This document shows, piece after piece, positions 21,901-45,143 of a stretch of DNA of 64,000 bases (the first letter of the stretch is position 1; every line of letters starts with the position of its first letter). Source of the DNA: Anthoceros angustus (Eukaryota; Plantae; Anthocerotophyta). The stretch lies in contig MU008162.1 of assembly GCA_010909165.1 (NCBI GenBank), positions 1,426,001 through 1,490,000 of the forward strand. Direction: 5' to 3'. Below the pieces are notes generated by a model that was not told the origin of the DNA, did not search any database, and saw nothing but the letters and a program-made list of their open reading frames with translations. Both the position numbers and the translations under genes were made by a program.

Positions 21901-22218
21901 AGAGTCCGATGACGACGCGTTCTCACAACCCCGCTTGCGATGACTCGGCACCACCAGACTCTGAAGCCTCCACTAATGACCACCCGAAGAGAGAGTACGC
22001 TTGCTTGGTCGATGTTGTTGCCATCGCCGCGACCGATGGGGTTGAGGAACCGCTCCCTTGCCGCCCGACTTGGTGCTACTTCCTCCCTCACGATCCGTCA
22101 GTCTACCGTGCTTACCGGAGTTCTCACGTTGAGCCGTCGCCTCTCACGTGGCATAAATCTTGAATCCAACAAGCGGAAGTTGGTGTTGGGCAGTCCAGAG
22201 TAATGGCGTTACGCGTTA

Positions 22219-25200
22219 CGTGGCGTGACTTTGGGCGATGGCTGGCGCCTGCAAGTGTCGTTGTAGGAAGAAGTCCGTCTCAAGGGAATGATAGGCCCAC
22301 TGGCTTCGTGATTCTTACACTTAGCGCCTGGGCCTCAACTCACACATACTCCTAACTACTCACAACGTTTCACCGACAGTCTATGGCTAAACGCGGGACC
22401 CGTGCTCAGATCACATACATCCTTCACGATCCGCCCTTTCTCTCTCCTCTCACGCTACACTCTTGGTCTTAGAAAAGGCCTTGGGTTCTGTGATCGGACC
22501 TCCTCGTCGTTCAGGGCCTCTCCGTCCGCTCTACACCCTCCGAGTTCCTCGGCTCAGCGTTCGTCCGTTGATTCGGTGGGCTCGGGGCGGATCACCGATC
22601 ACCCTTCCACCGCACCACACAGCGTTAAGTCGTCACGGGACCTTGATCAATCTCCCGGGTCGTGCACCTTTCGGTGACTCGGGACTCACGTTAGCAGAAG
22701 ACTCACAAAGGTGCGGGCGGCATCAACACCAAGAAAGATGCTTTACTAGAGGCCCTCTTATCTGCGCCCAAGGCGTCTTTACCCCTATTACGGTGATGAC
22801 TCGGTATACCCTAATCGGCCGCCTACCACTATCCCCTATCTCCTGTATGTGGGAAGGTCACAGGCCCTCCTCGGAATGGGTGGTCAATCCCCGTCACGGT
22901 TGTGGTGCACCCAATCGGATGATCCGTGGCGGGGCCCCTCCTCTCCCGGAATCACATCGGGTTGGGCTCTTGGCGGTCGACAACCGCCGTTACCACGGCG
23001 TCATCCTCCTGGCCTCCACAGGTCCTTGGCGGTGGGGCCACGGCTACTCGGCTCCCCTAAGCGTAAGTCGAAGGGGCTCCTCCTTCTTGCCCTTGGCCGG
23101 TCCTCGAGGTCTGTCTCGACTCCTGAACTTGAGTCCAGGTCCGTAGGCTAGGTCAGGCCTTGTCTGCAGGGTCCGGACCTCGGTCGGTTGTCAGGACTTG
23201 GTCCGGACTTATTCGGTCGGGTCGGACTTATTCGGGGTCCGGACTTGGTGGCCTCCCCTCAGTCCGGACAAAGTCCGGACTCACGCCCACCGGGTTTCCT
23301 CCCTCAGGACTCCTCAGTGGCTCTCCCTCGAAGTCCTCCCGGTTCCGATCGCCCGGTGACTCCTTGGTTGGCCCCTCCTTCCATGGTGAGGTGCGGGTGC
23401 TTACCTCGATCGCATCAGCTCCCTCGTTCTGCTCCTCCGGTTGCTCCTCTCCGCTCCGTCATCTCCAAGCAGGGGCCACTAGGGTCCTGTCTTTCCCGTG
23501 GCCTTCATCTCCTTAGCCTTCCAGGGTCCGTCGTCTGCGGGGGTCGAGGCTTCTCGCCTTGAGCTCGGCGTGGTAATAGGCAAAGTCGATCGACTTGTTG
23601 AATTGCCTCTTCCACGTGTGCGGGCACCGATACTCCCTCCGCCATAAGTGTTAAATTTGCGGCTTGGGCCACCTCTCCTGCGGTTGTGGTGGGCGGGCGT
23701 ATCACGTGAGGCTACAAGGCGGCCTCGGTCACCTCCTGCATTTGCCATTGTTGCTCACCTCGGCTCCGTCGTTTCCTTTCCATGCCCGGCTTACCGCCGC
23801 CAGCGCGGCGTTCCCTTCCGCCTTTCTCGGTGGACGGCGGCTTCTTTTACGCTTCCGGTGCTCGCGCTCTCCCGTTCATTACGGCCTTTAGCTCATGACT
23901 CCCTCTCCGGGCGGTGGATACCTCCGTCAGGCTCGGACTTCCTCCGGCTCCTTGCACAGCAGCGTCCAACTCCTTGGATAGTCGCCGATTTTCCTCCGTC
24001 TTGAGACGGGAGGCTCTCTTTCGTGCTCGTCGTGGATTCTCGTTGAGAATCACTGCTGCTCAAGCATCTTGGGTTGTAGCTCCAGCGTGTCCTTCTTGTC
24101 CTCCATCTGCTGCCGCCTCCCTCTACCTCCTGCTGTGTACTGGAGATCCCCTATCTCCCGTCTTGGCCCACTCCATAGCCACTTTGCCTTGAGTTAGCCT
24201 CATGCTGGGCTCTCTCCACGGTTCCGATCACGTCTGTAGTGATCCCGGTCGCTCTTTACCCGGCTTGAGGCTCCTTCGCCTTTACAGGCCTCGCCCACTT
24301 GGCTCTGGCCGGGCCGCCTCCGGTCCCGAGCTCTCTGCTTGTGCCGGGCCTCTTCCGCCTCTGCTGCGCTTCCCTCTTCGCTGCAAGGTCCTCCGCCCGC
24401 TTGGGCCTCCAGGCTTGCTTGTTTGTGCGCAGTGAAGAACCTTAACCCGTCTGTGAACCGCGGGCCTCGCGCTCCGCCACCCGGCGTTTCCCTTCCTCGA
24501 TCCGGCGAGGGACTCCGCCTTTTCCTTTGCCTCGGGCCTTCACTTGCTCTTGGGTTCCACCATCCTCCTCGGGTGGCCTCCACTTCACAGGTCTTCTCCA
24601 TGTACCAGAGACCCCAAAGCATTCCGTCCATGGCGGTAGCAGGACTCGCCGTGTTTCTTCCACGGCTGAGTGAGGCCCCCAAAGTCCGTAGTGGGAGCCG
24701 GCATTTCTCGTCCGCCAAGGACCTCCATACCTTGATCGAGTCGGTGGGTTCTCGGAATAATCGGGACCCTCGGGTCTGAGTGGTGGTCCAGTCTCACCCT
24801 CTTGGCCCTCTTGGCCTCTAACTCCTTTGTGCCCTCTTTCTCCAGGGCTCGGAGGAGGTGAGGGGTCGGGAGCAAGCTCTTTGCCCCTTCACATCGGGGC
24901 AGGGGCCGGCTCGAGGTGTGGGCTGCGGTGACCTCCTGCTCCTTGGGCCACGTCCCCTACGCCCTCCTTACGCCTCTTGACCTCTTGCCACTCAGGTGGC
25001 GGGGTAAGAATGCCGGCACTCCGAGGTCTTTGCGTTGGTAAGCGGCACCGTCGCCTCTTGACTCCCGGAGTTCGTCGGGCTCGGCGTGGTCATGGTGTGG
25101 TTGTTGTTATCGGTGCGGGGCCAACGCCCTCGGCATCGGCTCCCTCCGTGCTCGGAGGGCACCAAAAGGAGGAAGGGGAATCGCCTCCCAAACTTCCCAG

Positions 25201-26467
25201 GTGGTGAGGGGTTCGCTCACGTATGGAGTCAGGAATCCTCCCGATCGTCCTCCTCCGAGTCGCTTGGTCTTGAAGGGGCGACCCCCACCTCAGGCGCCCT
25301 TGCACGCTCTACGGCGGGGCCTCCCGGCCCCGGGCGCCCGCTCAAGCTCTCCCTCCTTGAGAGCTCGAAATGTCCCCATACATGAATCGGGAGTCGGCCC
25401 CGATAGGGCTTCTCGCTCCTTAGCTTGCGTGCCTCTGGCCCAGGCAGGCGAAGATAATCCTTCCCGTCCGCTCTCTTCCCAGGGCGCATGCGAGAATACC
25501 AGCGGTTATCACCAAGGTGATCCACCTTGGTGGCGAGTTCAATGGACAATGATCCGGGCTACCGCCCTTACTCGGTATCCGGCCGGATCGGATATCAACC
25601 ATCCGTTGGTTGTCCGCTGCGTTCGAGCCTCAACGCCGCGGTGGCCCTATCTTCCCTTCGCCTTAAGGGGCTCGGCACCGCCCCTTCTTCCTCCTTGGCG
25701 GTTGTAGGCCATCCTCGGGACCTCAAGGTCCATCGCCTCAGTCCTCCGGAGGTTCTTGGATCGGACCTCCTTGTTGATCGCCCGCCCGGCATCTTCGGGC
25801 AAACTCCGGACTAGAGTAGCGTTGTCAAGGTCAGACCATTTGGCACTGCCTCTCCTCTTGTTCTGGCTGGCGGCGGTCCCGGGCAGCACGATGTTCCTCC
25901 TTCGGCTTGTTGCTCCAACCCGGCATGCTTCTCCGCTCTGTGGTGGGCGCCCAAGCGCCCGAGCGGATTGCGGGCGCAAGGGCTATGAGGTTATGCGGAG
26001 GCTGCACGGCCAATGACCTCCTCCTTGGCGCTTGTGGAAGTAACTGGGCGGAAGGCGCCTCTTGTGTCAGCGCGAGTGCGCTTACTCGACCCTCGCTTGG
26101 CTTACTGCGGCCTTACGCCGCGCGCGGCCAGGCGTGAATACTGCCTGCGGCCTCAGCAGGTTACGGTCCCGCCTCGCACCTCCACTCGGGGCCGTCCACG
26201 TGGCGCCGCTCGTCATCCTCACGCCTCCTCCTAGGTTACTTTCCACAGGCGTACTTATCCTATTTTGACACAGGTGGGTTCGGACTTATCCGTTACTCCG
26301 TGGTCCGGGCTTGCCATAGTGTGCAGGGGTCCGTTGTTCACTCAGTCCGGAGTATACTCAGCCTCTCGTCGCTACCCCAATTTATTCCTCCTTTTCCGCC
26401 TTATTTATCCTTCAATCCTAAAAAGCGAAACCCTACTTATTTCTTAACTCCCGGTGCATAGCCCACA
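22219..26467 (-). repeat. 3' LTR (~4.25 kb)
   Basis: Starts TGTGGGCTATGCAC (minus) at 26467, just after the integrase end. Collinear with 31906-36242. Lacks about 125 bp matching ~35511-35634. Confidence 0.85.
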
Positions 26468-26479
26468 TACTCATCATTG

Positions 26480-29400
26480 GCGTCTCGCCAACACTAAATA
26501 CTTCTTCACCCCGTTTCAGTGGGCAGCGACTCTCCATCTAGTCGTGGTAGACGGACCCGTTGTCATATACTTGCACCACTGCGGACCCATCCATCTCGGT
26601 GAAGTTTGCAGAAAATGCATGTCGACTATCATAAAGGAGGGCGGTCCCCTTCCTTTACATACTCGATTCATGATCGGATCGTGCCAAATCTTTTTGCACC
26701 AATTGCATCTTGTGAGCTTCTTCCATCCTCATGTCTTTGCAAACCCCAAGAGTCGCTCGGTGGCTTTCCTCTTCTCGGTCTCCCTTCCATCATTACTCGA
26801 AAAGTGGGCACTTCAAACTCTCACGGCATTACGGAGAGTGTAGGTCAAGTAAGGGTCCGTTGTGTGGTCACCTTCTGCTGTCCGGGCATACAGTGCGGAT
26901 GGCGGCTTGGTATCGATCATGGGCGTAGTTCACTTTGAGTTTATTCGAGATCCTGCGATGAGCCCATTTGTCTTCTCTGTCGGCCCATTGGCCTTAGGAT
27001 TGTAGGGTGCCGTCTTGCGATGATTGATGCGAAATACTCCGTCATGGCGGCCACCACATCATTAAGGAAATGGGTTCCCCTATCACTTACCAAGCGGACA
27101 TCCGTCCGGGTTATGATGTTCTCGTCATGCGGTTTGGCCACGGTTTGCAGTCCGCCTCTACCCACAGTGCGGTGGTCCGTTGCCACGGGATGTATCTCCT
27201 TGTGTGTGTCTTGTCGTGGGTATAGGTCCAACAAAGTCAATACCCCACTTTTCGAAGGTGCCGGTGCCAATATCGGTACTAGCGGCTTTGTCGTCGGGGT
27301 TGGCTTCCGATCCGCCGACAAGCATCACACTTCTTCTAAGCGGTGGGTGTCCCCATACATTGTTGGCCACGGTATCCGCTTCAAAATCTTTTGGTGGTGA
27401 CTGTCTTTGCGTAGTGTCCACCCCAATCCTTCGTGCATTCCCTTGACGACCGCTCCTGTCTGCGGTTGCAAGTACCTTCGTTCTACTCCGTCTAATTTGA
27501 ACACACACCCGTTGTACATTCTGAAGGGTCGAGCATAGTGCACGAATGCCTCCCTCTGTCCACGAGTCAGATTTTCGGGAAGCTCCATTCCCCAGAGGTA
27601 CCGCTCTATTTCTTCGTAGGTCGGACGACCGCGGCGGGCCCTCCCCTTCTCCGCTTCTGCTAAGGCTGCCAGTTCTCGTAGCTTGGGGTTCGGTCGGCTG
27701 GGCTCCTCCGGTTGTACTTTTACTGCGGCAACCAATGTCTCATCCGGGAACGCATCTTCCTGATCTCTCAACACCTGCTCTGTTTTCAATCGTGACAGGA
27801 AATCTGCGTTTTGGTGCTGCCTCCCTTGTCTTGTTTCCACTTCGAACGTGAACTCCTGCAGCAACAATATCCACCTTGCTATCCGGGACAGTCTCTTATT
27901 CACCGGATGCTTGACAAAGTGGTCTACATAGAACACAAACTCCAGGGTAGTAGGTAGTGTCGAATTTCTTGACGATATACCATACCCGGCTTGGCCTCTG
28001 TTGTGTATTTTCGTTCCATGGTGGTGTCGTCCGTAGTAGTATACGGGATAATCCGCTTGTCGTCCTTCGGCTCGGCACTACTCGATAGCAAAAGCGGACA
28101 CATACATACACATGAAATTTCTGCTCGATCCGGTCCTCTTAGAACGGTGCGCTTAAGGTGTTAGTAAATCCGAAGGCCTCCTCTCGCTCCGTGACCGGTC
28201 CAAACCTCCTCCTTCGCATGGATTACATCAACTTAGCCCTCTTCGCAAAGTCCTTAATAAACCGGTAGTATCCCACCATTCGAAACCTCTCGGCTCCTTT
28301 AGGTTCGGTGGCGGTGGATGGATGACCGGACCTTGTCGGTCCACCTCGATTCAGCGCCCGACACCGATGTCGACAAGATTCCCTCCGTCATTCCAAAGTA
28401 GCATTTCTCGGTGTAGGCTCAATTGAGTCTCCGGCGCTCAAGCACCTTCTTAGATGCCCAAGGTGTTTGTCCTGCTCCCCATGCACACAAAATCATCCAG
28501 AATATCTCCATGAAGTCCCTCGAAGTCACGGAAGGCGTTGGTCACCATACGCATGAGCGACCACAGCGCTCCGGTCATCCCAAAGGCACTTCTCTTGTGG
28601 CAAGCGTGCCACTCCGTAGTGAAGGTCGTCTTGTCGGTCAAACTCCCTTAGGTGCAATTGGTTATGTCCAGTAGCCATCCGGAAGGAGTAAGTAGTCCGT
28701 CCACCTTGTCCAAAATGTGTCTCACAATGGCATCGGAAGTGGTCCTTCTCCGTTCGTTGAGCTTCCTCCAATCTTGGCATACCCGAATTTGTCTGTTTCT
28801 TGGGAACCACCACAATCGTGACCCACTCATTTGATGGGGAAAATGATGTCGCCTCCGGTACTTATCAAGGACCTCCTTCACCTTGATCGAATACTTGGGG
28901 TTGAGCTTGTCGGATTGATTTGGCACGCTCCGGCTTCAAATCGATCTTATGCTCTCCCACTTCTTGAATGCCCTTCATGTCCGTGACCTTGAAGGCGAAC
29001 ATAAAACTCCCCAGCTTTAGTCCTTCCTTGGTCCGAGGCATGCCTTTCTTAAACTTGAATTTGCTGGCCGGACCTCCACTTCTTCCACGTCGTCCGGGTT
29101 CACCGTCTCCCGTTCCCGTCGCCTCAGCTGCGTCCAAACCCCTCGTCCTCCTCTATCGTCCTCTCGCATCCCCATTCTCGTCGGTGAATCGTGTTACTCC
29201 TTGATGTCCGCTTTTCCTTGACTCTTGTTGTCTCCCCTTGTCTTGGTCCGACCTCCTCTTCACTTCCTTCCTCCGTTGTGGCGTTTACTCGAAAACAATC
29301 AATCACTTCCGCCAAAGGCATCCGCGGTAGTCCATCTCCTCCTCGGACCGGATCTTGGCGAAAGTCGCCTCCTCGGAACTATCTTGTTCGCCCTGGAGTC

Positions 29401-31650
29401 CTCCATTGAGTATACCGGTAGTGCTCACAGTTTCCCCAATAGGTGTCCTTGCTCCGTGTGATAACCCTCCCTTCTCGCACCTTAGGGTCCCATCCACCCA
29501 AGTGAATCTCCTTCCTTCCAAAGTGTAGCTTTGCAGGCCAACCCGGCATGGCGCCAGCAACACCTCATACCCTAATGGTCCGGCGGTTTGATCACAACAA
29601 AATCCGGTTTGTAGGGTGCCGGCTATGGTGGCCAAGACTCGGTTAACTCCGGATCTCTTCTTGACATATACGCCATTCTCGAGTCTTCGTTGAGGGTTGA
29701 AGGATGTGAAGCCCAATTTTCGTCTTGGTGGCTTGATGATGAGGTTGACTCGGACCCGTGTCCAGTACATCCTTGATGATACATCCAATCTCCACTTGTA
29801 CCACTGGCGCCCACAGGTCCGTATGGGACACCACCCTCACTTCCATGTGCTACCCTTCACGGCTTTGGTGCTCATGGTGGGTTTCCTAACCCGACGGACC
29901 TCTTGTATTTGGGTTATCCCTCATCGAAAGGACACAAGGTGTCTTGATTCATCATCGTCGCCACATTAAAGGGAGGCTTCTACTCGAGGATCCTGCTGCT
30001 GCGTCCTCATCTCCCGGGTCACTTAGGTATTCTCCGGATGCTTGCGCATTTCCTCCGCAACATCTCGGTCACCTCCGGACTCGTCCTGGAAGCTAACGTC
30101 GGCGTCGCGGAGGCACCGTTCCCTCCACTGTCGGAGAACTTCCTTCGGGTAATCCTCCGGCGAGGCTGTCCAGCCCTCCTTCATCGGTCGGATCCTCTGT
30201 GGTATTTCCGTTTGATTGCCTTCCTCGGCGTCAGTGGCCTTCCTCGATCTTGTTCTTCTTCAAGCCTTTCTCGCTCCTTCCTTCACGAGTAGACACCTCC
30301 AAGATTTCCGACTCCCTTCCTTCGACACCCCACCGTACCTTCTTGTTCTTTTCCATCTCGCGTACCTCAATCTCTTCCCTCCATGAGCATCTTGACTTGC
30401 CGTGCAGTGCGGTCTTAGGAGGTGGCGTTGGTGGTCGGTTCTCCGCTTGGTGTGGCATATCGTCATCCTTGCGGGGTTGGGACATAGCGTCTGCCGCCCA
30501 CCCTGCGATCACGCAGCTCGAAGTCCCCATTACCACCTCGTTGGAGTGCGGACAGCGTTGGAGTAATGGATTCCGCGTTCCAGCGGACCACGGCCGTCGG
30601 AGGATACACGAAGGGGCTCCCATGCGGTCTTTGCATCGGTGGGGCCCGTTGTATTGGACCTCCGGTTGGCGGATACATGGTTTTGGGATATCGCGGCCCG
30701 GAGGGGGCTTCACATGCACGAGGCCTCTTCCCATTGCTCCTCGGCCTCCTCCTCGTATTCGTAGTCCACTTGATGCCGGCCTTGAGGCGGTTGGACTTCG
30801 AATGGCCGTGTTCTTGGCGGCACACGAGATGCGTTCGCCGTGGTCGGTGTTTTCCGCGCTCGGTCCTTAACTGGTTTATCGCGGTCCTCTACTCTCTTTA
30901 TCACTTTTTCCGGGTCCTCCCGCGGACACACCTCCTTTGAGGGAGTCGGGTCCGTGGAGCTCGGACCGTGGTGTCACCACCTCCTTCTTACCACCACTTC
31001 TTTTTAGGGGCTTCTTGCTCTTCTTGCGGGATACTCTTCCTCGCTAGAGACCTCCGTCTCTTCTTGACTGCTCCTCCTCCAAGACACCTCGATTGGTCTT
31101 CCTCCTCCTCACGAAGACTCTTCCTCCTCAGTCCCCCGTTTCTTCTTCTTCTTGCCTCCTTGAGCGGTTCTTTATCCTCGATGTAGCGATTCCTCGTAGT
31201 TTTTTCGGCCGCCTTGCCCCCGTCCTTCTCGGCGGCGGGCGTGCACAGGGTTTGGCTAGACGGCGCGAACCACCGTCGCTTGCATCGTGGTATGGGTTGG
31301 ATGCCGATCCTCGGGCATAGAACCGCTCGATGTCTGAGCCCGGCTTCTCCTTCTTCGCTTGATTTTCCAACTTTGATAATACATACCCTCTGGTCGATCC
31401 TCGAAACCGTTCTAAGAAGGCATTTTCAAAGCTTCAAGCGAGGCGGGTGGGGCATTCTCCGGTGGTCGGTACTTTCTCCGATACCATTGAGCGGTTCCCT
31501 CGGAGAACCCCTTGGAAAAATTTGGATGAGCGTCGACTCCCTCTCCGTTGAAGTTGGCTTTGGACACGAAGTCCTCCACAAAGGTCTCGCATCCGCTCCT
31601 TCTTCCCTCCGAATATGGAGTGCGCTTGTTTGGTCGGTAGGGGCCATGGC
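26480..31650 (-). pseudogene. gag-pol polyprotein (gag, protease, RT, RNase H, integrase), frameshifted throughout
   Basis: PR: VLDTG (~29760). RT: HKIDLKP, LNPKYSIKVKE, VVVPKK, IRVCQDWRKLN, DKTTFTTEW, FGMT, (L)DDF (~28495). RH: RIARWILLLQEFTFEV..G..HQNADFLSRL. INT: FEKWGIDFVGP, LVSDRGTHFLN, WMGP. No chromodomain before the LTR. Confidence 0.9.
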
Positions 31651-31887
31651 TGCGCCATCGATGGGTTAGGCGTGGGGCATCCTACCTTCTTCCGTTGGCG
31701 TCCCTCGTACGTCTCGTCTTGGTCACTTCACGTTCTCCCTCCTCGATCGTGCTCTCGTTGGGTTTGGCGTCTCTCCTCTCCAGCTCGGAGGAGCGTCAGG
31801 TCCTCCTGACAGTTCACTCTTGGCCGTCGCTCGGCCACGCATTCACTTACCTTCTCTTCCTGGGCGCACTGCGGCACCGGACCGATT

Positions 31888-31902
31888 TCATTCCCAGCGC
31901 CA
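31888..31902 (-). promoter_or_regulatory. Primer-binding site of the intact element (degenerate or noisy tRNA-Asp type)
   Basis: The minus strand reads CCACA-TTT-TGGCGCTGGGAATGA just inside the 5' LTR. The clean paralogous PBS is at 36595-36612. Confidence 0.7.
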
Positions 31903-31905
31903 AAA

Positions 31906-34900
31906 TGTGGCGTGACTTTTGATGGCGGTAGGCGCCAATCCGTGTCGTTGTAGGAAGAAGTCCGTTCCCAAGGGAATGATAGGCCCGTTTACGCGTTTGG
32001 TGATTCTTACCGTCCTTAGCGCTCGTTCGGTCTCAACACACACATACTCTAACTACTCTACGTTCACCCTGCGGGCCGGTATGGCCAAGCGTTTAAGGAC
32101 CCGTTCGTCCGTATCGTTCCACATCGCATCAGTCCTTTCCTCTCTCCTCTCACGCTACACTCTTGATCTTAGAAAAACAGTTTTCTGATCCGGACCTCCT
32201 CGTCGTTCGGGCCTCTCCGTCCGGCTCTACACACACCCTCCGGAGTTCCTCCGGCTCACGCGTTCAGTCGTTCGGTGTCGGACGCGGCTCGGCACGGTCA
32301 CCGATCACCCTTCCCCGCACACACCACAACGCGTTAAGTCAGTCCGCGGGACCTTGATCAATCTCCCGGGCGCCGTGCACCTTTCGGTGACTCGGGACTC
32401 ACGTTAGCAAGAAGACTCACAAAGGTGCAGAGCGGCATCAACACCAAGAGAAAGATGCTTTACTAGGCGACCTCGGCCCCTCTTATCTCTGCGCCCAAGG
32501 TGGCGTCTTTATTACACCCCTATTAGTGATAGCCCATTTCGGTATACCTAACCCCTATTCTCCCCTATCTCCCGCGTGGGGAAGGTCTGAGCCCACCTCG
32601 GAATGGGTGGTCCAATCCCGTCAGCGGTTGTGGTGCACCCAATCGGATGATCCGTGGCGGGGCCCCTCCTCTCCCGGAATCACAGCCGGGTTGGCGCGGT
32701 CGACAACCGTTACCACGCGTCATCCTCCCTGGCCTCACAGGTCCTTGGCGGTGGGGCCACCGGCTCGGCTCCCCTAAGCGTAAGTCGAAGGGGCTCCTCC
32801 TTCTTCTTGCCCGGTCCTCGAGGTCTGTCTCGACTCACGAACTTGAGTCGGCTTATTAGGTCCGGCCGGCTAGGTCCGACCTTGTCTGGGTCCGGACCTC
32901 GGTCGGATTTATTCGGTCCGGACTTGGTCCGGACTTATTCTGGTCCGGACTTGGTCCGGACTTATTCGAGTCCGGACTTGGTCGGCCTCCCTCGGGGGAC
33001 AAAGTCGGACTCCACCCGGGTTTCCTCCCTCACGGGACTCCTCGTGGCTCTCCTCAGTCCTCCGGCGATCGCCCGGACTCCCGTTGGCCCTCCTTCCATG
33101 GTGAGGTGCGGGTGCTTACCTCGATCGCATCCGCTCCCTCGTTCGCTCCTCGGTTGCTCCTCTCCGCGCTCCGTCATCTCAAGCAGGCCACTAGGGTCCT
33201 GTCTTTGTCCCCGTGGCCTTCATCTCCTTCGAGCCTTCCGGTCCGTCCGGCGTGAGTCGAGGCTTCTCGCCGGGAGCTCGGCGTGGTAATAGGCAAAGTC
33301 GAATCGACTTGTTGAATTGCCTCTTCCACGTGTGCGGAGCACCGATACTCCCTCCGCCATAAGTGTTAGGGCGTCTTTTCGGCTTGTTGGGCCACCTCTC
33401 ACCCGGTTGTGGTGGGCGTATCACGAGAGGCGGCCTCGGTCACCTCCTGCATGCCCTGTTGCTCACTGCTCGGCTCCGTCGTTTCCTTTCCATGACTTAC
33501 CGCCATAGCGCGGCGTTCCCCCGCCTTTCTCTGGACCGGCTTCTTTTACGCTTCCGGTGCTCGCTCCTCCCGTTCATTACGGCCTTTAGCTCAGACTCCC
33601 TCTCCCGGTGTCGGATACCTCAGGCTCGGACTTCCTCCGGCTCATGCAGCAGCGTCCAACTCCTTGGATAGTCGCCGATTTTCCTCCGTCTTGAGACGGG
33701 CTGCTCTTTCGTGCTCGGTCGTGGATTCTCGTTGAGAATCACTGCTGCTCAAGCGCATCTTGGGTTGTAGCTCCGGCGTGTCCTTCTGTCCTCCATCTGC
33801 GCCGCCTCCTTCTACCTCCTGCAGTATCTGGAGATCCCCTATCTCCCAGTCTTGGCCCATCTGCTCCATGGCCTTTGTAGCGGCCTTGAGTTAGCCTCAC
33901 TGCTGCTCTCCACCGGTTCGATCACGTCTGTAGTGATCCGGTCGCTCTTTGCGGCTTGACTCCTTCGCCGCCTTTACAGGCCTCGCCCCTTGCTCTGGCC
34001 GGGCCGCCTCCGCGGTCCGAGCTCTCTGCTTGTGCCCGGCCTCTTCCGCCTCTGCGCTTCCCTCTTAGCAGGTCCTCGCGCTTGCTTGGCCTCCCCAGCT
34101 TGCTTGGTGACCGGTGAAGAACCTTGGCCCGATCTGCTGAACCGCCGGGCCTCGCGCTCACCCGGCGTTTCCCTTCCTCGATCCGGAGGGACTCCGCCTT
34201 TTCCTTTGCCCCTCCGCCTTCACTTGCTCTTGGGTTCCACCATCCTCCTCGGGTGGCCTCCACTTCTGGGTCTTCTCCTGCAGAGACCCCAAAGCATTCC
34301 GTCCATGGCGGTAGCGGACTTCGCCGTGTTTCTTCCACGAGCCCAGTCCGTGGTGAGCCGGCATTTCTCGTCGCCAAGGACCTCCATACCGCACCGAGTA
34401 AGTCGGTGGGTTCTCGGACCTAATCGGGACCCTCGGTCACGGTGAGTCGAGTCTCACCCTCTTGGCCCTCTTGGCCTCTAACTCCTTTGTGCCCTCTTTC
34501 TCCACAGGGCTCGGAGGTGAGGGGTCAGCAAGCTCTTTGCCCCTTCACAGCCGGGGCAGGGCCGGCTCGAGGTGGGCTGCTGACCTCCTGCTCCTTGGGC
34601 CACGTCCCTACGCCCTCCTTACACTCTTGACCTCTTGCCACTCAGGTGGGCGGGGTAAGATCTGGCACAGGTCTTTGCGTTGGTAAGCGGCACCGTCTTC
34701 CGCCTCTTGGCTCCCGAGTTCGTCGGGGCTCGGCGGCCGTCGTGGTTGTTGGTACGTCGGTCGGAGCCGCCAACGCCTCCGGCATCGGCTCCCTCACTTG
34801 CTCGGAGGGGCACCAAAAGGAGGAAGGGGAATCGCCTCCCAAACTTCCACAGGTGGTGAGGGGTTCGCTCACGTATGGAGTCCGGAATCCCTCGATCGTC

Positions 34901-36242
34901 CTCCTCCCGAGTCGCTTGGTCTTGAAGGGCGACCCCCACCTCAGGCGCCCTTGCACGCTCTACTTGGCGGGGCCTCCGGCCTTCCGGGCGCCGCTCAAGC
35001 TCTCCCTCCTTGAGCTCGAAATGTCCCCATACATGAATCGTATGGGGTCACCGATGGCGAGGCTTCTCGCTCCTTAGCTTGCGTGCCTCTGGCCCGAGCC
35101 GGCGAAGATAATCCTTCCCAGTCGCTCTCTTCCCAGGGCGCATGCGAGAATACCAGGTTATCACCAAGGTGATCCACCTTGGTGGCGAGTTCAATGGACA
35201 ATGATCCGGCTACCGCCTTACTCGGATCGGCGGATCGGATATCAACCATCCGTTGGTTGTCGCTGCGTTCGAGCCTCGGCATCGCGCCGCTGGCCCTATC
35301 TTCCCTTCGCCTTAAGGGGCTCTGGCACCACCCCTTCTTCCTCCTTCGGGCGGTTGTAGGCCATCCTCAGGACCTCCAAGGTCCATCGCCTCGGGTCCTC
35401 CCGGAGGTTCTTGGATCGGACCTCCTTGTTGATCGCCGCCAGCATCTTCCGGGCAAACTCCCGGACTAGAGTGACGTTGTCAAAGGTCCAGACCATTTGG
35501 AACACGTCCAGATGCCACTCCTGCACCAATTCCCCTGCTTCCTCCAGCCAGGGCCCGAAGTCCGGATAGCGCCGGGTCACAATGTTGCGCTCCACGAGGG
35601 TCCATGGCTCCCAGACTTCCGTCGGCTTTTTGGGTGCCATTGCTTTCTCCTCCTCTTGTTCTTCTTGGGTCGTGCGATGTTCCTCCTTCGCGTTGTTGCT
35701 CCAACCTTGACGTCACGCTCTAAAAGTGGTAGCGCCCGGCGGGCGCCGAGCAGTTGCGGGCGCAAGGGTATGAAGTGGTAGGCCAGCCTCCTCCTTGGCG
35801 GCTTGTGGGGGAAGCTGCAAGGCGCCTCTTAGTAGCGCGAGTGCGGCTTACTCGACCCTACGCCCGCTTACTGCCTTACGCCGCGCGCGGCGGGCGTGAA
35901 TACCGCTATAACGGCCTGCAGCAGGTTCTGATCTGACCTCGCATGCCCGACCTCCACTGTGGCCGCCCACGTGGCGCCGCCTCGTCATCCTCACGCCTCC
36001 TAGGTTACTTTCCGCATTTATCCTATTTTGACTGGAGTGGGTTCCGGACTTATCCGTTACTCGTGATCAGGAGCTTGCCATAGTGGTACCGGGTCCGTTG
36101 TTCACTCCAGTCCGAGTATACTCCGAGCCTCGTCCAAGCGCTACCCCAATTTATTCCTCCTTTTCCGCCTTTATTTATCCTTCAATCCTAAAAACAGAAC
36201 CCTACTTATTTCTTAACTCCCCAGGGAAGTGCATAGCCCACA
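31906..36242 (-). repeat. 5' LTR (~4.34 kb)
   Basis: TGTGGGCTATGCAC at 36242 to CCACA at 31906 (minus), followed by the PBS. Confidence 0.85.
33000..35640 (-). CDS. LTR(U3)-embedded accessory ORF: globular N-terminal domain, low-complexity linker, coiled coil, conserved C-terminal motif. Frameshifted as assembled; end approximate
   Basis: ATG 35640, MAPKKPTEVWEPWTLVERNIV...DPRRWTLEVLRMAYN. Later pieces in shifted frames: NGWLISDP, PPRWITLVI, GRIIFA, IHVWGHFEL, RLKTEENRRLSKELDAA, HVEEAIQQVDSDFAYY. Second copy in the 3' LTR (~23300-25850) and a diverged homolog at ~38300-39420. Confidence 0.65.
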
Positions 36243-36594
36243 CGTTCTCACAACCCAACGCGATGACTCGGCACCACCGGACACAGGCCTCCCTTTAGCC
36301 CGGCCACCCAGCGTGCCTTGCTTGGTCGATGTTGTTGCCATCGCCGCGACCAAGAGGGGTTGAGGAACCGCTCCCCTTGCCGCCGCCTGACTTGGTGCTA
36401 CTTCTTCCTCACGATCCGACAAGTCTACCGTGCTTACCTGCCGGCTGGAGTTCTCACGTTGAGCCCGTCGCCTCTCACGTGCTCAAGGCCTGGAAGCGCC
36501 TCAAGGTCCCACCGTCCGGCTCACTCAAAGAACTGCTCTGACCACCTCTCGTCCTCCACGCATCCACACTTACTAGGCTACGGAATGATCTCAT

Positions 36595-36612
36595 TCCCCG
36601 GCAACGGCGCCA
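36595..36612 (-). promoter_or_regulatory. Primer-binding site, tRNA-Asp(GUC), of the older host element
   Basis: Minus TGGCGCCGTTGCCGGGGA is the 18-nt complement of the plant tRNA-Asp 3' end (TCCCCGGCAACGGCGCCA), 3 nt from the LTR end CCACA at 36616. Confidence 0.9.
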
Positions 36613-37205
36613 AAATGTGGCACGACTTTCGCTAATGGCCAGCCGGGCGCGCATAATCCTGCGTTGTAGTAAGGAGTCCACTCCCAAGAGAATCATAGGC
36701 CCGCTTGCCGCTTCAATCGATTCTCACTCACTTTGTAGACCGCTCACCAACACACACATTCGTCATTTTGCGCCTAACTACCGTAACGTCCATCGAATGT
36801 GCCCGGTGTGGCTAAACGCTTGAGGACCTGCTCGCGTCAGATCGCTCACGCCCGCCACTGCCTTTAGTCCGCCTCTCACCACTCTCACTACACTCATCAA
36901 TCTTGGGGAAAACGCGAGTGGCTACACTGCCTGACCTCTCGCCGCTGCCGCCTCCGCCATCTCTCCTCCGGCTCAGACGCCTTCCGGAGTTCCTCCGGCT
37001 CACGCTTTTGGCCTGCTCGACACCGCTGCCTGACGAACAAGGGTCCCTGGCCGCTTCCCCGCACACACCACCACACGTTAGGGGTCCGTCACGGGACCTT
37101 GATCGGCTGGCCGTGCTCGTTGCACCTGTGACTCACACGTTAGCAAGAAGACGACAAGGGTGCAAAGGCGGCATCAACACCAAGAGAAGATACTTTACTC
37201 GGCCC

Positions 37206-37212
37206 TCTTATA
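37206..37212 (-). promoter_or_regulatory. Putative LTR TATA box (TATAAGA)
   Basis: TATAAGA on minus about 590 bp from the LTR 3' end. Repeated at 37798-37804. Noisy equivalents near 22756 and 32481. Confidence 0.5.
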
Positions 37213-39549
37213 CTACGCCCAAGTCGGGCGTCTTTATTACACTCCCATTACGGTGGTGGCAGCTCAATATATAATCGACGCCTACCATCCTATTCCTTCC
37301 TCCTATTCTCGGTAAATGCGGTGGGCCTGGGAGGCACAGGTTCCGTCTCCTGGCCCAATCCCCTGCTTCCGATAGCCAGCACAATCGGATGATCCGGCGG
37401 GACCCCCTTCCTCTTCCGGAACTCATCGGTTGGGCTACTGCCGGCGGTCACCGCCCGTTACCACGACGCCTTCCTCCCCGGCCCCCGAGTGGGTCCCTCG
37501 GGCCACTGACCGCCTGGCCTCCCGGCGTGAGGGCTCCTCCTCACCTCCGAGTCCGACCTCGAGGTCCGGTCTCGACTCCGAGTCCGACCTCGAGGTCGGT
37601 CTCGGCTCGACTCCCGAGTCCGAACTTCGTGAGTCGGCCTTATTTCCAGTCCGGTCCGCCGGGTCCGGCCACTGTGACTGACCGCCTGGTCGCCGGCTCG
37701 CCAGCCGGACTCAGACTCACGTTAGCAAGAAGACGACAAGGGTCTGCGGAAAACGCTGATCATCACCAAGAGAAGATACTTTACTTAGAGCCTCACCTCT
37801 TATACTACGCCCAAGTCGGCTTTATTACACTTTATTCGAGGCTAGCCTCAATATGCCTTAATCGGGCCGCCTACCATCCTATTCCTTCCTCCTATCTCCG
37901 CTGCTGGCGGTGGGCCTGGGAGGGCCTGGTTCCCCTGAGACCGGTGGCCCAATCCCCTGCTCGATAGCTTGCGCACCTAACGGATGATCCGCGGTGACCC
38001 TTCCTCTTCCGGAACTCATCGGTTGGGCTACTGCCGGCGGTCACCGCCCGTTACCACGACGTCTTCCTCCCCTGGCCCCCGAGTGGGTCCTCCCTAGAGG
38101 GGCCACCGATCGACCGCCTCCCGGCGTAAGCCTGAGGGCTCCTCCTCACCTCGAGTCCGGACCTCGAGGTCCGGTCTCGACTCCCGAGTCCGGACCTCGA
38201 GGTCGGCTCGACTCCCGAGTCCGAACTTCGTGAGTCGGCCTTATTTCCAGAGTCCGGTCCGCCGGGTCCGGTCTCATCTCTGGGGGTCGGACCTCGTGGT
38301 CCGAACTTTACTGTGGTCCGTCCCTAAGCTCGGACCCTTTATCCGCGACCACCTTAGGGGCCCCATCCTCACCCACCGACCCTTGTCTTGGTTCGGTTTG
38401 GTTTCCTCCTTCCTCGCCCCCTTCGGGGCCCCATCTCTCTCCTCCCGGACAGGTTGCGGTTGACTTACCCCGAGATCCGTCGTATTGGCCGCGTCCTGCT
38501 CCTTCTGGGGCTCTTCTTCCCCGCTGCCGTCGTCCCCAAACAGGGCCACCAAGGTCCCCGTGCTGTCCCCATGTCCTTCTTCCCCTTCCACTCCCTCTGA
38601 GCCTTGGGTCCGTCTGCTAGCGGGGCCGAGAGGCTTCCAATGCCTTAAGGAGCCTGGGTGACAGTAATAGGCAAAATCCGAGTCAATTCTTTGGATTGCC
38701 TCTTCCACATGTGAGCACCCGGCACTCTTTTCGCCATAGGTGCTCATTTGCGTCTTTGTCAAACTTGGACCATCTCTCACCACCAGTTTGTGTTGGAGCC
38801 GGGCCGAATCTCGCGAGGCCACAAGGAAGCCTCGTCACCTCCGCAGCCCGTTGTTGCTCCACTGCAATTGAGCCCAAAGATCCTCCATCTCCTTGTTCCA
38901 TCGCCACCTCTTCTGCCCGCCATGACGCAGGCCCCTTCCGCCTTCCTTAGCGGACGGCGGCTTACTGCGTCAGGCCCTCGCTCCCGTTCATCCTCGGCCT
39001 TGCCTCCGCCATCTCCCTCCGTGACGGTCGCAACTCTGCGATGCGCTTCTGCCTGTGTCCTTCTCCATTTCGGCGACGTCCTGCTCCTTGTTCCATCGCC
39101 TCACCTCTTCTGTCCGCCAACAGAGCTGGAGCCGCTCTATCTCCCACTCGTGATCCGCGATCACGCCCTGCAGTTCCCCGTTCCGCTCAATTGTAACCTG
39201 GAGCTGCAGCTCCAAGGTCTCCTTGCGGTCTTCCATTTCCTCCCGCTGTTGCTCCACTTCGTGCAATTGAGCCCAAAGATCCTCCATCTCCTTGTCGCGG
39301 GCCTCCTTCTCCTCGGCATGGCTGGCCCCGCCTCCGCCGCCTCCGCCGCCTCCGCCGCCTCCGCCTTCGTGTTAGCTGTGGCTATCCTGCCTCCCTCCAC
39401 TGCTCGATCACGCCGATAGTGATCCCGACGACTGTGCTGGCTTCCGCCTCCTCGCCACCTTCACGAGCCTCGCTTGGTGCCGGGTCGGCCGCCTGTGTCA
39501 TGAGCCTTATATTTTAAAGTATACTTTGAAGTATTATCGCCACTAGAAT

Positions 39550-39900
39550 TTTGATCTAGAGTAGAAGAAGATGCCTACCTCGCAAAACCATGGGCAGTGC
39601 CAATATAAATACAAAAATATAAATGAAATTCTAGATTGGAATTTGTCTGCAAGAATTCAGAGGCATACTCAATAATACCTCAAAGTGGCTTTACCAACGG
39701 TCATGGCCAAGGCAATTACCAGGATGATCGAGATTAGAAGGCATAAATGGCAAAGTGTACTGGGCAAGGGACATATGCCAAGATGTGAAGGATTTGCCTG
39801 TGTTGCGACCTCAACGAAGTAGACGATGAAAGACGCGTCCTCTTCAACTATAATGCATTGACTGATGCTGGGCTAACCATCACATAGCTTTTCTAAAAGA
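39550..39900 (+). mobile_element. Decayed LINE 3' fragment (C-terminal Cys/His region)
   Basis: Translation RICLCCDLNEVDDERRVLFNYNALTD resembles the R.C..C....VEDE.H.LF.C..Y.D.R C-terminus of LINE ORF2 proteins. Stops and frameshifts are present. Confidence 0.55.
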
Positions 39901-40083
39901 TGTAGACTACAACATCCATTACCGTTGCATGCACCCCAACACCTCCTTGTCTCATTCTCATAGCAGCCAACAAGATAGACTATCGATGAATCAAATATCT
40001 CTATTAGGACAATACCCTCGGAGAACCTCCGGATATCATGACAAGGCTTGACAAGCACCACGTTGATGTGACTGCAAATCCCT

Positions 40084-40268: not shown

Positions 40269-42999
40269 GAAGCCCATGATTATGATAGAATATATCAGCA
40301 TCAACTATATACAAGCAACTAATACTTGAGGGTTTTTTGTTTAGAGCCAAATAGTTTTCACCCAAAAAAAGTCTCTCAACCAGCAGACTCCCTCGAGTGA
40401 GTTCTTTAGTGCGAGACATTACGCCATAATCTTGAACTTGAGGCCATAGTTCAGGTGAGGGTTTAAGTTGGCAGCTTGATGGACGACCTTCTGCTTGCCT
40501 GTCACTTAGTCATTTAGTTTTTTAGTCTCCATCCACATTAGAAGTTTGTAGGACCTATTTTATGACTTGGAGCCTACCAAGAAACCAACGGATGCAAGGA
40601 GCAAAGCATCGTGACAACAACATGGCATACGGCAAGAGGGGGAACATCCCAACAAAGGTGAAAGATAAAGGAGGCATCCAAGGCTGAATTATTGCGACAG
40701 TTGAAGGAGGCAAGGGCGGAGCTTGCATGGGCAACTCGGCGGGAAGAAAGAACCAATGTGGACCGCTTGGTTACTGCCATTTATGAAACACATGATTCGT
40801 TGCTGCGCCCACACCTCGCCAGCTTCTACCCACACCCGATCACACATTGGTTTTAGAAGAGGAAGACCCAAGATGCGCTAAATTTTTGAGGCATGGGGCA
40901 CCACCATGGCGCCTTGATTGATAACCACTTTACCTAGTAGCCTAGACACACCTAGTAGCTTACTACCATGGCGTTACTCCATATCAAAACTTGGATATAT
41001 ACTTTGAAATATGTTTAAAGTCTATGAATCCACTAAAAGCAATCGGTGCACCATGCTCACATACGAATCAAAAGAAGACGTTATTACGAGCGGGCTTGGC
41101 TCGGCTGGTAGGATCCATAGGGTCTTGTAACAATCCCAGGTTGCGGTGCTGCAATATGATAGTTTACGTTCATAGCTTACAGAATATTTTCACTCTAAAA
41201 ATTAGTGGCCCGGCAACCCGTGATTCCCACCAGTGTAGTCGCTGTCGGAAAGGCGCGCAAATCTGCTGGATCCTGAGACTCACAGCCCGGTATGGGCCGC
41301 TGCCCGCAGGTAGCAACAGTACCATGGACGCCATCATGAAAGGGATCGGCCTATCATTTGCCCCGCCAACTTTTTCACCTCCATTCACCCACGAGAGTGA
41401 CTCTGCACGCCTGGCTCCACGTCACGCCAATGACAGGCGTGAAACCTTCCAGCTCAGCTGAGATGAGGCCGCGGTTGCAACCGCCACCCGTGACTCCACG
41501 CCCCCGAGTTACCGCAATCGTTTTACCCTGGGTGTCTCCTTGTCGGTTGTCGGTACAACATAAAGTGGAGCTTGCGCCCCGCTGCTCACTCGCTCTGCGG
41601 CTCTGCCACTCTGCCCTTGTCGTCAGCCACCGAGGATCCGTGCAGCGTGCGGCTGCGGGTTGTGCTATCGCTCTTGGTCGTGAGCTCCTTCCGACTGCCT
41701 TGGTCCCGACCACTAGCTGCATTTTGCGAGAGCTCGCGTAAGTCCTGCGGATCGACTTCCTGTCACAACGTTCCTTTCTTACAAGTGCGTGACGGAGCGA
41801 TGTGCGTAGATTTCGGTTGTGTGCTGGACTGTGTGTCTGTGCGTAATACATGAATGTCAGTGTCAGAGTCCGGAGGCTGCCAGCTGCATGCGTATGGTCA
41901 CGACTCGCGAGGTGAACTGGTAAGCGTGCCGTCCGCCGAACTTCGATTTTGATCGACACGACACCGCTGCTGCTTTGCTGGTTTAATTAGGAGGTCTGGA
42001 TCTGGCAGATGGCTACATCGCCGGCATCTCTGCCGCCTGGAGTAGTTCTCGCCTCTGAAGGAGATGAGTTTACTCGAGGATTCAATTCTTTGGCTGCGTC
42101 TGTGATCGTTGTCCTTTCTGTTCAGTGTCTGTGTGCCTGTTACGACGTCCAAAGCTGCGCGTTTCACCGAAATTTTGCATTCCTGGCTGAGTAGTTTGGT
42201 GACTTGCTTGTTCTCAAATTGAAAGTTCTGAACTGAGCTGACCGTAGGTTTGCCATGACTGGCAATTGAACGAACGATCTGTCTGCTTTCTAGGAGTTGT
42301 GGAATGATTTGCCAGTGCGTGGAGGTCAGATCGAGTCACGTCCATTTGAGAGAATGTTTGAATCCCTCTGGATCCATGGAAAGATCCATCCATGCAGTGT
42401 GGAAAGTTCCTGACGTCGTGTTTCAAGTTTTTCGGATTCCAGACTGAGTCCCTGCACATGAGAGACGGCCATTTGCAAGCTTCATTGCGCTTACTGTTGT
42501 CATCCCGGATGGTACAACTGTTGCGCAAGCTTGATTGTCCGTCTTTTAGATGCCTGTGCCTGCACGCTCTCTGAATCTTCGTGTCGCCTGGCCGGTATCG
42601 GTATAATGTGCTTCTTGATCCGGTAGATTTGAGCTGGCACAAGTTCTGGAACTGTGAGGATTGATGTGCAGGCTGGACTTCCGGCAATTCCTGCAATGGA
42701 TGATCCGCTACCTGTTCCGACCTGTCGTGTGTTATTGGCTGACCCTAGGAACGGATAATATTGGTGCGCTGCTGCAGGTCGAGTGATTTGTCAATTTAGG
42801 AAACTTTGTTGAACTATTCTGTCTGACGAACACTGGATTGAGTGCACAATGGCCAAAATCATCTGGCTGACTATCTTGAATGTGTAGTTGTATGCAGCTT
42901 GTGTGCTCATTTTGAGTTCCTTAAGTTGATCGCAGTACTGCTGTGTGTGCAGGTGCAGAGAAACTAGTTACGCGCGAGCTGGGAGCACCTCAGACGCTG

Positions 43000-45143
43000 A
43001 TGGATATGTCGAAGGCTCTGGCAGCAAACATGTACTCAGCCAACTGCAACTCAGCTATGCTGAATGACCTGCAGCAGCTTGGGTTTGCTCTGCAGTCCAA
43101 TCTTCTCAAGTCCGATTCTGCGAGCTATTGTGCCCGATGTGACCCGGAGATTCGAAGGCTTGAGGCCCAGCTGCATGAAAGCCTGGCTAATCAAGATGCT
43201 CTTGGGACAGAGCTCCGGTGGGCACTGGAGAGCAAGCTCGCAGCTGAGCTGTCTCTTGCCGAGCATCTGACACATACTAGGTCCCTTATTGACAGTTTGG
43301 GTAATGCGACTCCACGAGGGCCCCTTGGCTGGATGCCTGCAAATTCACCACCTGATCAGGACGAGGATTCTCTCAGCCTCTTTTCTCAGCCACTTATTTC
43401 CTCTCCAATGAAGGATGATCATCGCCATGAGAATGGGAAGCACTGCGATGAAGTAACCAAGGAGCTGGAGATGCAGCTGGCGAGAATGTCTTTTCAGTTT
43501 CAGACACTGGCGGAATGCTATAGCCTGACTGCCCATCGTTTGCAGCAGGCACAGACTGAAGTTTACAAGCTCAACCGTGAGAACCTTGAACTTCAAGCTG
43601 CAAATGGAGAGCTTATAAAGGGTTATCGCTTGAAGGAACGACAGCTGCAACAAATTCTGCTGGACAGGACTGCGTTCGACATGCCTGGGACAGAATTTAA
43701 CATGTCAGCTCTGCCCCTAAGTTATGGCAATACTCCACTGATGTGCGAGGAAACATTCAGCCATGTGATCTCGCCAGAGCTCAAACAGGGTATGTGCCAT
43801 TCAGATGCTGTCGACAATGCTCCGTCCAAAGTTGGGCCAGGCGCCTATTCTGGAGCTCGAGCTCGTGAGCACCAAGACCAGACAATGTCCTTGTCTCAGC
43901 TCTCCATCGCCGACAACTCTACTGCAGCTGATACCCCGACCTTGCCACCTGCTACACTCCAGCATGGGAGGGTTCTCTCTGAAAGAACGAACATATCCAA
44001 TCTGGTCATTCCAAAGCGAGACTTGAAGACATGGTATTTGCCGAGCAAGTTTCCTTCTCGTGACCATCAGCAGTTTGATTCTCCTGGTGTCGCAAGTGCA
44101 TGCGCCATGAAGGCCAACGCAGAATCTGCTCCAACGGTTGCAACGTTGCCAGCAAGATCCTTGTGTGAGGATTTGACACAGTCAACAGATTGCACAGTTG
44201 TGCTGGATACTGATCCACTGATCCTGAACGCGAAGTCTGCAACTATCAGCGAGGGGAGTGGCAGCAAGGTCCATGGATCCGTCATGTTGCCTAAAAGCAT
44301 CTCGATTCGTGCCAGTGGTACGTCTGTTGTGACAGTGATGGCCAATTTATCTTGTCAGACCAAGAAGAAGAGATCAGTCTCTCCTGAGAGTACTGACAGC
44401 ATCCAGAGTCTTGTTTTGTCACCAGTCTCTCCACTCCGACCTCATCGACTTCGGCTGTCGCCACTGATGGGCAGAGAAGTATGACGAAGTCATTACCTTC
44501 AATCAGGACTAGCCCAGGGCATGCACATTCATGACTGATGATGTCAGATCCTCAGTTAGGGATGCGTTAGTCCGGTCCACCCTGTTTGCGCTTGATCCTG
44601 TAGCCTCATAGACTTGCAGTCTGAACTCTCTGACAATGCTGGTAATGTTCATCGACTTGGTGCTGGCTTTTAGGTTTATCTTGGAGTCAGTCTGTATGGA
44701 TAGCAGGGACGGTTTATCACAAGGAGAACATCCAACCAACATAGGATGAGTCGGTTGTTCCAGCATGCACAAATTGTCTGGTCTGTATACTGGAGAGTCT
44801 GTGCGATTCTGACCTCAGGTGTATCATGTGAATGCAGGAACTGCTTACTTCAGATTCTGCAGGAAAGGAAGGAAGTGATAACGACCAAGTGGAGTGCGAT
44901 GTATTCGATCAGGGAATGTACAAAACAGAGCTGTGCAACAAGTGGCAGGAAGGTGGGCATTGTCCGTATGGAAATCGTTGTCAGTTTGCACACGGCGTCG
45001 ATGAGCTTCGTCCTGTCCTTCGCCATCCCCGATACAAGACAGAGCTGTGTCGTATGGTCGCTAATGGCGACAAGTGCCCCTATGGACATCGTTGTCATTT
45101 TCGGCATTCAATGACGAAAGAAGAGAAGGCCTCTCTGCTGTGA
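43000..45143 (+). CDS. Tandem CCCH zinc-finger RNA-binding protein, C3H14/C3H15 (TTP/ZFP36-like) family
   Basis: Last exon (44854 or 44863)-45143: [57 protein letters not shown]. Large exon 43000-44317 holds the family coiled coil ([26 protein letters not shown]) and LPKSISIR, ending at donor G|GTACGT. Possible middle exons 44426-44478 and 44620-44641. The start may lie in an upstream exon (acceptor near 42952). Confidence 0.85.

Follow-up and report, generated by a model that had tools for sequence, protein, structure and literature searches.

The long terminal repeats (LTRs) of retrotransposons are annotated as non-coding, and solo LTRs are viewed as dead ends of element removal. The nef open reading frame (ORF) of human immunodeficiency virus (HIV) lies in U3 and is copied to both LTRs; the U3 ORFs of HIV and of mouse mammary tumour virus (MMTV) are much smaller than the frame described below. 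Surveys and reviews place the extra ORFs of plant retrotransposons in the internal region and, in the parts of their text available, none in an LTR (PMC7264820 and others), and a literature search for an LTR-internal ORF in a plant retrotransposon found no paper, judged by title or the start of the abstract. LTRs of up to about 5 kb have been reported in non-chromoviruses by Neumann et al. (PMC6317226), so LTR size alone is already known. In the Athila lineage the primer binding site is complementary to tRNA-Asp/Asn and has an AT-rich spacer (ATHILAfinder, 10.64898/2026.03.20.713144); an extra ORF in the 3' part is given for 47% of Athila elements in a column that is shifted (PMC6317226, Additional file 5), and matches to ATHILA ORF-1 are given as 3' forward (PMC6317226, Additional file 4). 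Here we analyse a Ty3/gypsy element whose 4.3-kb terminal repeats appear to carry a large sense frame, found in a 64,000-nucleotide stretch of Anthoceros angustus DNA (GCA_010909165.1, contig MU008162.1, positions 1,426,001 to 1,490,000; hereafter the window).

We read this locus as an Athila-like element with 4.3-kb LTRs and a likely accessory gene in the probable U3. The 3' LTR copy of the gene would be expressed by way of a spliced RNA, and its product, a nuclear protein with a coiled coil, would target the LTR promoter of the element itself; for the chain as a whole, belief and doubt are about evenly balanced. The reading starts from the LTR ends, the primer site, an integrase that abuts a purine tract in sequencing run X1, a sense coding signal and, in a related neighbouring family (B), a predicted long helix. 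We regard the giant LTR as real and the LTR-borne gene as likely. A contig search matched two sequencing runs, X1 and X2, the latter perhaps of RNA; X1 contains one quarter of the words, its contig depth is no copy number, and it is perhaps the source of the window itself. On the minus strand the element runs from 36242 to ~22220, a size of 14 kb, in the order LTR, TTT spacer, damaged primer site, short leader, gag-pol pieces, LTR:

36243..36247, minus strand: target-site flank GAACG; AACG recurs at 22214-22217, past the 3' LTR
31906..36242, minus strand: 5' LTR of 4337 bp, TGTGG...CCACA (self-comparison, alignment, X1 depth)
31889..31905, minus strand: TTT spacer and damaged primer binding site of tRNA-Asp/Asn type, adjoining the 5' LTR
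26480..31700, minus strand: gag-pol in pieces, in the order gag, protease, reverse transcriptase (RT), RNase H, integrase, with no space for an extra ORF behind the integrase (motifs and weak PDB matches)
26468..26480, minus strand: polypurine tract site, incomplete in the window, 10 purines in an X1 contig
22220..26467, minus strand: 3' LTR of ~4250 bp, noisier, lacking ~130 nt around the ORF start (self-comparison, alignment)

In self-comparison the direct repeat pair (36242-31906 and 26467-~22220) is 84% identical over 3805 columns and 78% identical over the first 614. Both copies start at TGTGG and end at CCACA (5' copy) or CCACG (3' copy), the ends that a first-pass annotation, made from the sequence alone, had assigned to a Gypsy element. 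It had also placed one repeat against the primer binding site and the other against the integrase end, and indeed a primer site comes after the 5' copy, while the integrase-like sequence stops just short of the 3' LTR. AACG is present on both flanks of the element; the fifth base is noisy, so the duplication is of 4 or 5 bp, 5 bp being the length in Athila elements. The integrase piece matches retroviral integrases in PDB (E = 0.018), and the RNase H end has a weak match to polyprotein chain 8r0s (E = 0.14). Stops are depleted in gag-pol (z = -4.3 and -5.8), and 0 of its 13 pieces matched a retroelement family in Pfam. The marks of a Ty3/gypsy element found at the locus are TG...CA LTRs, a primer site, a purine tract (in the X1 contig only), a noisy target duplication and the domain order RT, RNase H, integrase, in which RT, like gag and protease, is presumed from motifs only and has no match in searches.

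The joint between integrase and 3' LTR bears on the rival view that the 4.3-kb repeat is a tandem or assembly duplication and no true giant LTR. In the window itself no purine tract precedes the 3' copy (26467), at 26468, which favours a duplication, as do the noisy assembly with several tandem duplicates differing mainly by gaps and a 240-bp flank found at either end of the element. By contrast, a single X1 contig (depth 170.6 of 594.3) has seven extra letters at 26469 that yield a 10-purine tract 2 nt before the TG; this tract-bearing contig is outside the 8 of 414 pieces listed, and 31 letters on both sides are unchecked, points that again count towards a duplication. At the LTR start (26368-26451), X1 depth reaches 3454-6272 in four bins; the five integrase bins with the best coverage have 1024-1845, and the remaining bins to either side of the joint are far lower. 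Across the 5' LTR, depth is generally in the hundreds to thousands, staying high up to the 5' end and falling beyond it, to 0 at 36376-36542. This profile and the X1 tract stand against a duplication, as do the shared TGTGG start, inverted to the CCACA end, and family B, which likewise has a frame upstream of an LTR end and primer site. A duplication is thus very improbable in our view and, because of the purine tract, the inverted ends, the primer site and a second family of the same layout, the entire 4.3-kb repeat is very likely, from its sequence, a true LTR. The first-pass claim that all 4.3 kb is LTR gains support from the X1 tract. That tract, together with a depth that is high across the repeat and drops outside, also makes unlikely the contrary case named in the same annotation, an internal ORF with short LTRs or a duplicate made in assembly. 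The flanks themselves are repetitive: the family B leader contributes a 240-bp piece that occurs twice, ahead of the 5' LTR (36243-36481) and past the 3' LTR (21845-22210), with a 70-bp piece repeated around; the second copy resembles an empty target site, and the arrangement may be a tandem duplicate or an assembly join of two alleles.

Land-plant genes within the window, identified by Pfam as a glycosyltransferase-8, a PPR protein with E motif and a nucleotide-sugar transferase, have frames that are open over 445-759 codons, whereas the window's repeats, unlike these host genes, show dense small gaps. Because host genes are open while repeats are full of small gaps, repeats in the assembly appear to have retained long-read errors. 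Global alignment of the 5' and 3' repeats gives 3795 matches, 134 substitutions and 329 gaps, a gap-heavy pattern typical of uncorrected long reads; therefore no long open frame is readable in the LTRs and, because errors dominate, LTR divergence yields no estimate of age. Elsewhere in the window, tandem duplicates of ~1035, 240 and 1360 bp lie at 13849-16325 and 16927-19651; the two large ones differ mostly by gaps and are possibly uncollapsed reads.

The frame carried by the LTRs is represented in both copies and, in part, in the neighbouring family:

33000..35640, minus strand: LTR-borne sense frame, ~880 codons if whole, in pieces, with an approximate 3' end (coding score, stop depletion)
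35299..35640, minus strand: open N-terminal piece of that frame, 114 aa, Trp-rich, helical in a low-confidence model (GC by codon position; predicted local distance difference test, pLDDT, 49)
23250..25850, minus strand: second copy of the frame in the 3' LTR, in pieces (alignment, stop depletion)
36616..39494, minus strand: truncated LTR of a related family (B) at 62-73% identity; it has an intact primer site and, of the same frame, the coiled-coil and C-terminal portion (alignment)

For this region the first-pass annotation had claimed a sense ORF of about 2.6 kb from ATG 35640. The ATG is there, and a coding signal above chance was found in the 5' copy and partly in the 3' copy; a single open frame was not, the longest sense stop-free pieces being 114 codons from the ATG and then 123-197 codons further on. 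GC at codon positions 1/2/3 is 0.62/0.39/0.80 in the first piece, against 0.56/0.43/0.70 and 0.61/0.46/0.67 in host genes. A frameshift-tolerant coding score, trained on window genes and compared with 40 shuffles each, gives z = 4.1 for 35640-35000, 3.0 for the whole stretch in the 5' copy and 3.0 for family B; for the controls it gives 1.3-2.1 (gag, RT and integrase) and -1.5 and -1.8 (LTR ends). Sense stops number 59 against 74.3 expected in the 5' copy, 62 against 74.1 in the 3' copy and 23 against 29.9 in family B (p = 0.008, 0.024 and 0.042, respectively; 500 shuffles), with no such depletion in five flanking LTR parts.

The family B LTR, which terminates in an intact primer site (TGGCGCCGTTGCC, 36593-36612) matching the published Athila tRNA-Asp/Asn site, has in common with the LTR frame the peptides KDTPELQ/KETLELQ, HVEEAIQ and DFAYY. 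Its piece at 39371-38991 is predicted to form a single 98-residue helix with heptad spacing (pLDDT 85). A 1635-nt contig of X2 has three anchors that match in order and are separated by longer, dissimilar stretches; its 30-letter flanks, translated by hand in the same frame, are charged and similar in kind to the window peptides, PSPMRRRAEK preceding the anchor ELEAKRAK and VAGLKKELEE following the coiled-coil anchor.

A number of observations count against a working gene of this kind, some of them in favour of a relic, an extra ORF that became trapped in the LTR as the priming site shifted and of which most copies, if not all, are now disrupted. No intact copy of the frame was seen. Coding scores are low in the 3' copy (z = 0.6) and in the sub-regions towards the middle and end of the frame (z = 1.3, 0.9 and -0.6), and one antisense sub-region reaches z = 2.6. 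The minimum numbers of frame switches are 11 and 13, against 13 by chance. More directly in line with a relic, neither the codon-phase test of family A against B (p = 0.12 and 0.81; control 0.06 and 0.35) nor pN/pS (0.65-0.70 for the ORF, overlapping the non-coding control range of 0.66-1.21) separates the ORF from controls, no protein record was found, and the 3' copy is without a start, ~130 nt including the ATG being absent from it; X1 depth over 35374-35707 is ~3000, so the family usually has this ATG region. X1 also conflicts with an open reading of the first piece: compared with a 5-kb stretch it gave 101 indel rows, and among the best 12 of these 101, which were examined, 4 fall inside the 114-codon piece and would break its frame, at 44-72% of local depth. 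On the other side, half of the X1 deletions checked (5 of 10) fall within homopolymers of at least three bases, against a background of 16%, so X1 may itself carry long-read errors, although decay of many copies may be the cause instead; and the two families retain peptides in common at a DNA identity of only 62-73%. We therefore hold a mere relic to be unlikely. That the LTR has carried a gene, at least ancestrally, is probable, and an open frame in young copies is slightly favoured. The earlier proposal of a protein-coding gene inside the LTR is thus supported in part, by the coding statistics and by peptides common to two diverged relatives, and falls short in that no intact copy was seen.

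Read in order, the protein pieces comprise a helical N-terminal region rich in Trp, then a linker rich in Pro and Thr, the basic stretch KRAKRVRL, a coiled coil that is long and charged, the conserved motif HVEEAIQ...DFAYY and an acidic tail, and the product of the accessory gene is likely to be a nuclear coiled-coil regulator. Athila, Calypso and Bagy-2 have been proposed to encode env-like membrane proteins, and such a protein is an alternative here; it draws on the sense orientation behind pol and the spliced route, both of which match env-like ORFs (PMC7264820). However, the pieces are highly charged and coiled-coil, and no transmembrane-strength segment occurs in 9 of 9 sense frames of three copies, the best 19-residue mean hydropathy being 1.38 (frame breaks could hide one); an env-like protein is accordingly the least credible of the rivals.

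Homologue searches returned nothing for the frame. In Pfam, 0 of 9 ORF pieces reach the cut-off for PMD, Transposase_28, Transposase_32 or ATHILA ORF-1, a weak test, as the 13 gag-pol pieces fare no better. Word-index searches gave 51 candidates for the N-terminal piece, 318 for the two-piece alignment and 2711 for the RNase H-integrase control piece, none of which pass; phmmer against 1.84 billion representatives gave 0 matches, two ESM Atlas searches gave chance-level matches or none, and exact look-up of proteins gave 0 of 7. Neither viral contigs nor metagenome contigs, the latter searched by DNA word and by peptide, contained a homologue, and Rfam had no match over 31500-40000. Since the pol control is also without matches, these blank searches are no proof of an orphan gene. 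Two leads were rejected: the fold of the N-terminal piece (pLDDT 49), whose best structural match (Z 6.6, root-mean-square deviation 3.4 over 71 residues) is a common and uninformative helical arrangement, and a Transposase_32-like reading of the word LVREF, for which there was no Pfam support.

Candidate regulatory signals lie on both sides of the frame:

32480..32487, minus strand: TATA-like GATAAGAG; the family B LTR has TATAAG at the matching place
32890..32977, no strand assigned: six GTCCGGAC palindromes in an array between the ORF end and the TATA-like box, with five at 23171-23280 and two at 38155-38195
31845..31852, minus strand: putative splice-donor-like AG/GTAAGT in the leader, ~50 nt past the primer site (1 observed, 0.2 expected per element)
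26418..26430, minus strand: putative splice-acceptor-like T-rich tract ending TTTTTAG/G near the 3' LTR start, with a twin at 36187-36193

The first-pass estimate of a putative TATA ~590 bp from the LTR end agrees with the TATA-like word at 32487, which lies downstream of the frame and 581 bp from that end. It has a counterpart in family B and, as the putative start site, would place the frame in U3; an AATAAA lies upstream of the box, so the U3/R border is uncertain. The family B LTR has its promoter part twice in tandem (37136-38271, 82% alike), giving two TATA boxes.

If the frame is indeed in U3, it may have entered when plus-strand priming shifted to the tract directly behind the integrase, which would bring into U3 the extra ORF that is often behind pol in Athila elements; reverse transcription would then copy the ORF to both ends and into solo LTRs. 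Genomic RNA starting near the TATA-like box at 32487 would have the ORF at its 3' end. By the simplest route, the leader donor (31852) would join the acceptor near the LTR start (26418), so that gag-pol is skipped and the ORF is read from the 3' LTR through a spliced RNA; the TTTTTAG words, once per LTR and ~50 nt into it, are the only ones in the element (0.15 expected). Between the acceptor-like site and the ORF start there are 3-4 ATGs, which tell against this simple route and argue for a further splice or for an own promoter, and such a promoter in the first 600 nt of the LTR could replace splicing altogether.

The least secure steps concern the protein. It could dimerise through its coiled coil and enter the nucleus through the basic KRAKRVRL, and our committed guess is that the dimer would bind the GTCCGGAC array, which precedes the TATA-like box, and would activate the promoter or counter its silencing; the functions suggested in the first-pass annotation (transactivator, anti-silencing or chromatin factor) would be of this kind. 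All 13 copies of GTCCGGAC in the window lie in three LTRs (6, 5 and 2), between ORF end and TATA-like box, where 0.12 are expected per LTR. Set against these steps, no start site, splice product or protein was observed, and nothing was found that links the protein to DNA binding. The main rival to promoter binding is RNA export: the LTR gene would be real and its protein, a Rev- or CERV-like factor, would export unspliced genomic RNA. A strong donor-like site right after the primer site would make genomic RNA resemble intron-containing RNA, and CERV of the element Cer1 is an orphan protein, made from a spliced mRNA and encoded partly behind pol, that is needed for export (PMC10309623). With splicing putative and no RNA-binding domain or export signal identified in the pieces, we consider this rival, too, unlikely. 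Returning to promoter binding, a wider proposal, tentative and less probable than the reading from which it departs, is of a plant Athila-like clade with a large accessory gene wholly in the LTR, in which each solo LTR would be a self-contained gene for a dimeric regulator binding the palindrome array of its own promoter and could serve as a trans helper, a layout like that of complex retroviruses.

Other features of the window lie outside the element. PiggyBac-like transposase pieces with a Cys-rich tail occur downstream of it at 20900-21900 (minus strand; weak DDE_Tnp_1_7 match, E = 0.2), and a frame at 11204-11857 (minus strand) has a weak, below-cut-off match to a BAH domain (E = 0.0003). 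At 42925-44484 (plus strand) a 519-codon open frame has a coiled-coil-like start and no Pfam family above cut-off. A tRNA-Met gene (59771-59842, plus strand) has an inverted near-copy of 66 bp at 58467-58532. The 759-codon frame at 60553-62832 (minus strand) contains a nucleotide-diphospho-sugar transferase domain and a WQ repeat, and the opposite strand is open over 905 codons (60613-63330).

If the proposed arrangement is correct, a 2.6-kb gene in the LTR would survive element removal in solo LTRs and double its dose per insertion, and such genes would escape pipelines that limit LTRs to 1-2 kb or look for extra ORFs in the internal region alone. Giant LTRs would then have a mechanism, displacement of the plus-strand priming site, and the question of what plant extra ORFs do would gain a concrete protein-and-target pair.

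Among described systems, the element is likely, by its sequence features, a Ty3/gypsy retrotransposon of the Athila kind. The Asp/Asn-type primer site with AT-rich spacer is intact in family B and damaged in the element itself; the short leader, the ~118 codons from RNase H end to integrase and an integrase ending at the tract indicate, by spacing and not by profile, that there is neither an additional RNase H nor a chromodomain. The additional RNase H of the Tat elements (Ogre, Retand, TatI-III) would likewise have no room by spacing; Tat clades Z1/Z2 without it exist in Marchantia (PMC10508981), and the element may belong with these. Phygy and Selgy, elements of 4.4-10 kb with a tRNA-Trp or tRNA-Ala primer, were rejected, the element having an Asp/Asn-type primer and 14 kb. 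It resembles the Athila lineage (PMC6317226; 10.64898/2026.03.20.713144) in primer site, AT-rich spacer, the lack of a visible additional RNase H, a length within the range of 7.3-22.8 kb and a sense extra ORF behind pol, a likeness drawn from primer site and spacing and not from an RT tree; it departs from it in that the extra ORF is past the purine tract, inside the LTR, and in an LTR of 4.3 kb instead of the usual 1-2 kb. The additional ORFs of Retand, Grande, Ogre and Tekay/Retrosat2 (PMC7264820, PMC11963269, PMC11728184, PMC3485330) are similarly orphan, fast-evolving and often predicted to be nuclear, with SMC-like coils, basic signals and disordered parts; unlike the frame here, their descriptions place them in the internal region, either ahead of gag or in the interval from pol to the LTR, and often in antisense. 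CERV of Cer1 in Caenorhabditis elegans (PMC10309623), compared by description only, is also an orphan ORF behind pol of a Ty3/gypsy element, made from spliced RNA and with a nuclear role, but it belongs to an animal element and is internal to short LTRs of 492 bp. MMTV has in sag/naf an ORF in U3 that is copied to both LTRs, with a U3 promoter (PMC9412291); as MMTV is a retrovirus with no sequence relation to the element, the analogy is one of layout only. The nearest published structure found is Diaspora of soybean (PMC1142308), which shares with the element the Athila lineage, an Asp primer site, a pol ending near the purine tract and a long LTR (2524 bp); its authors, in the available text, found no long ORF in other frames, whereas the LTR described here is 1.8 kb longer and carries a coding signal.

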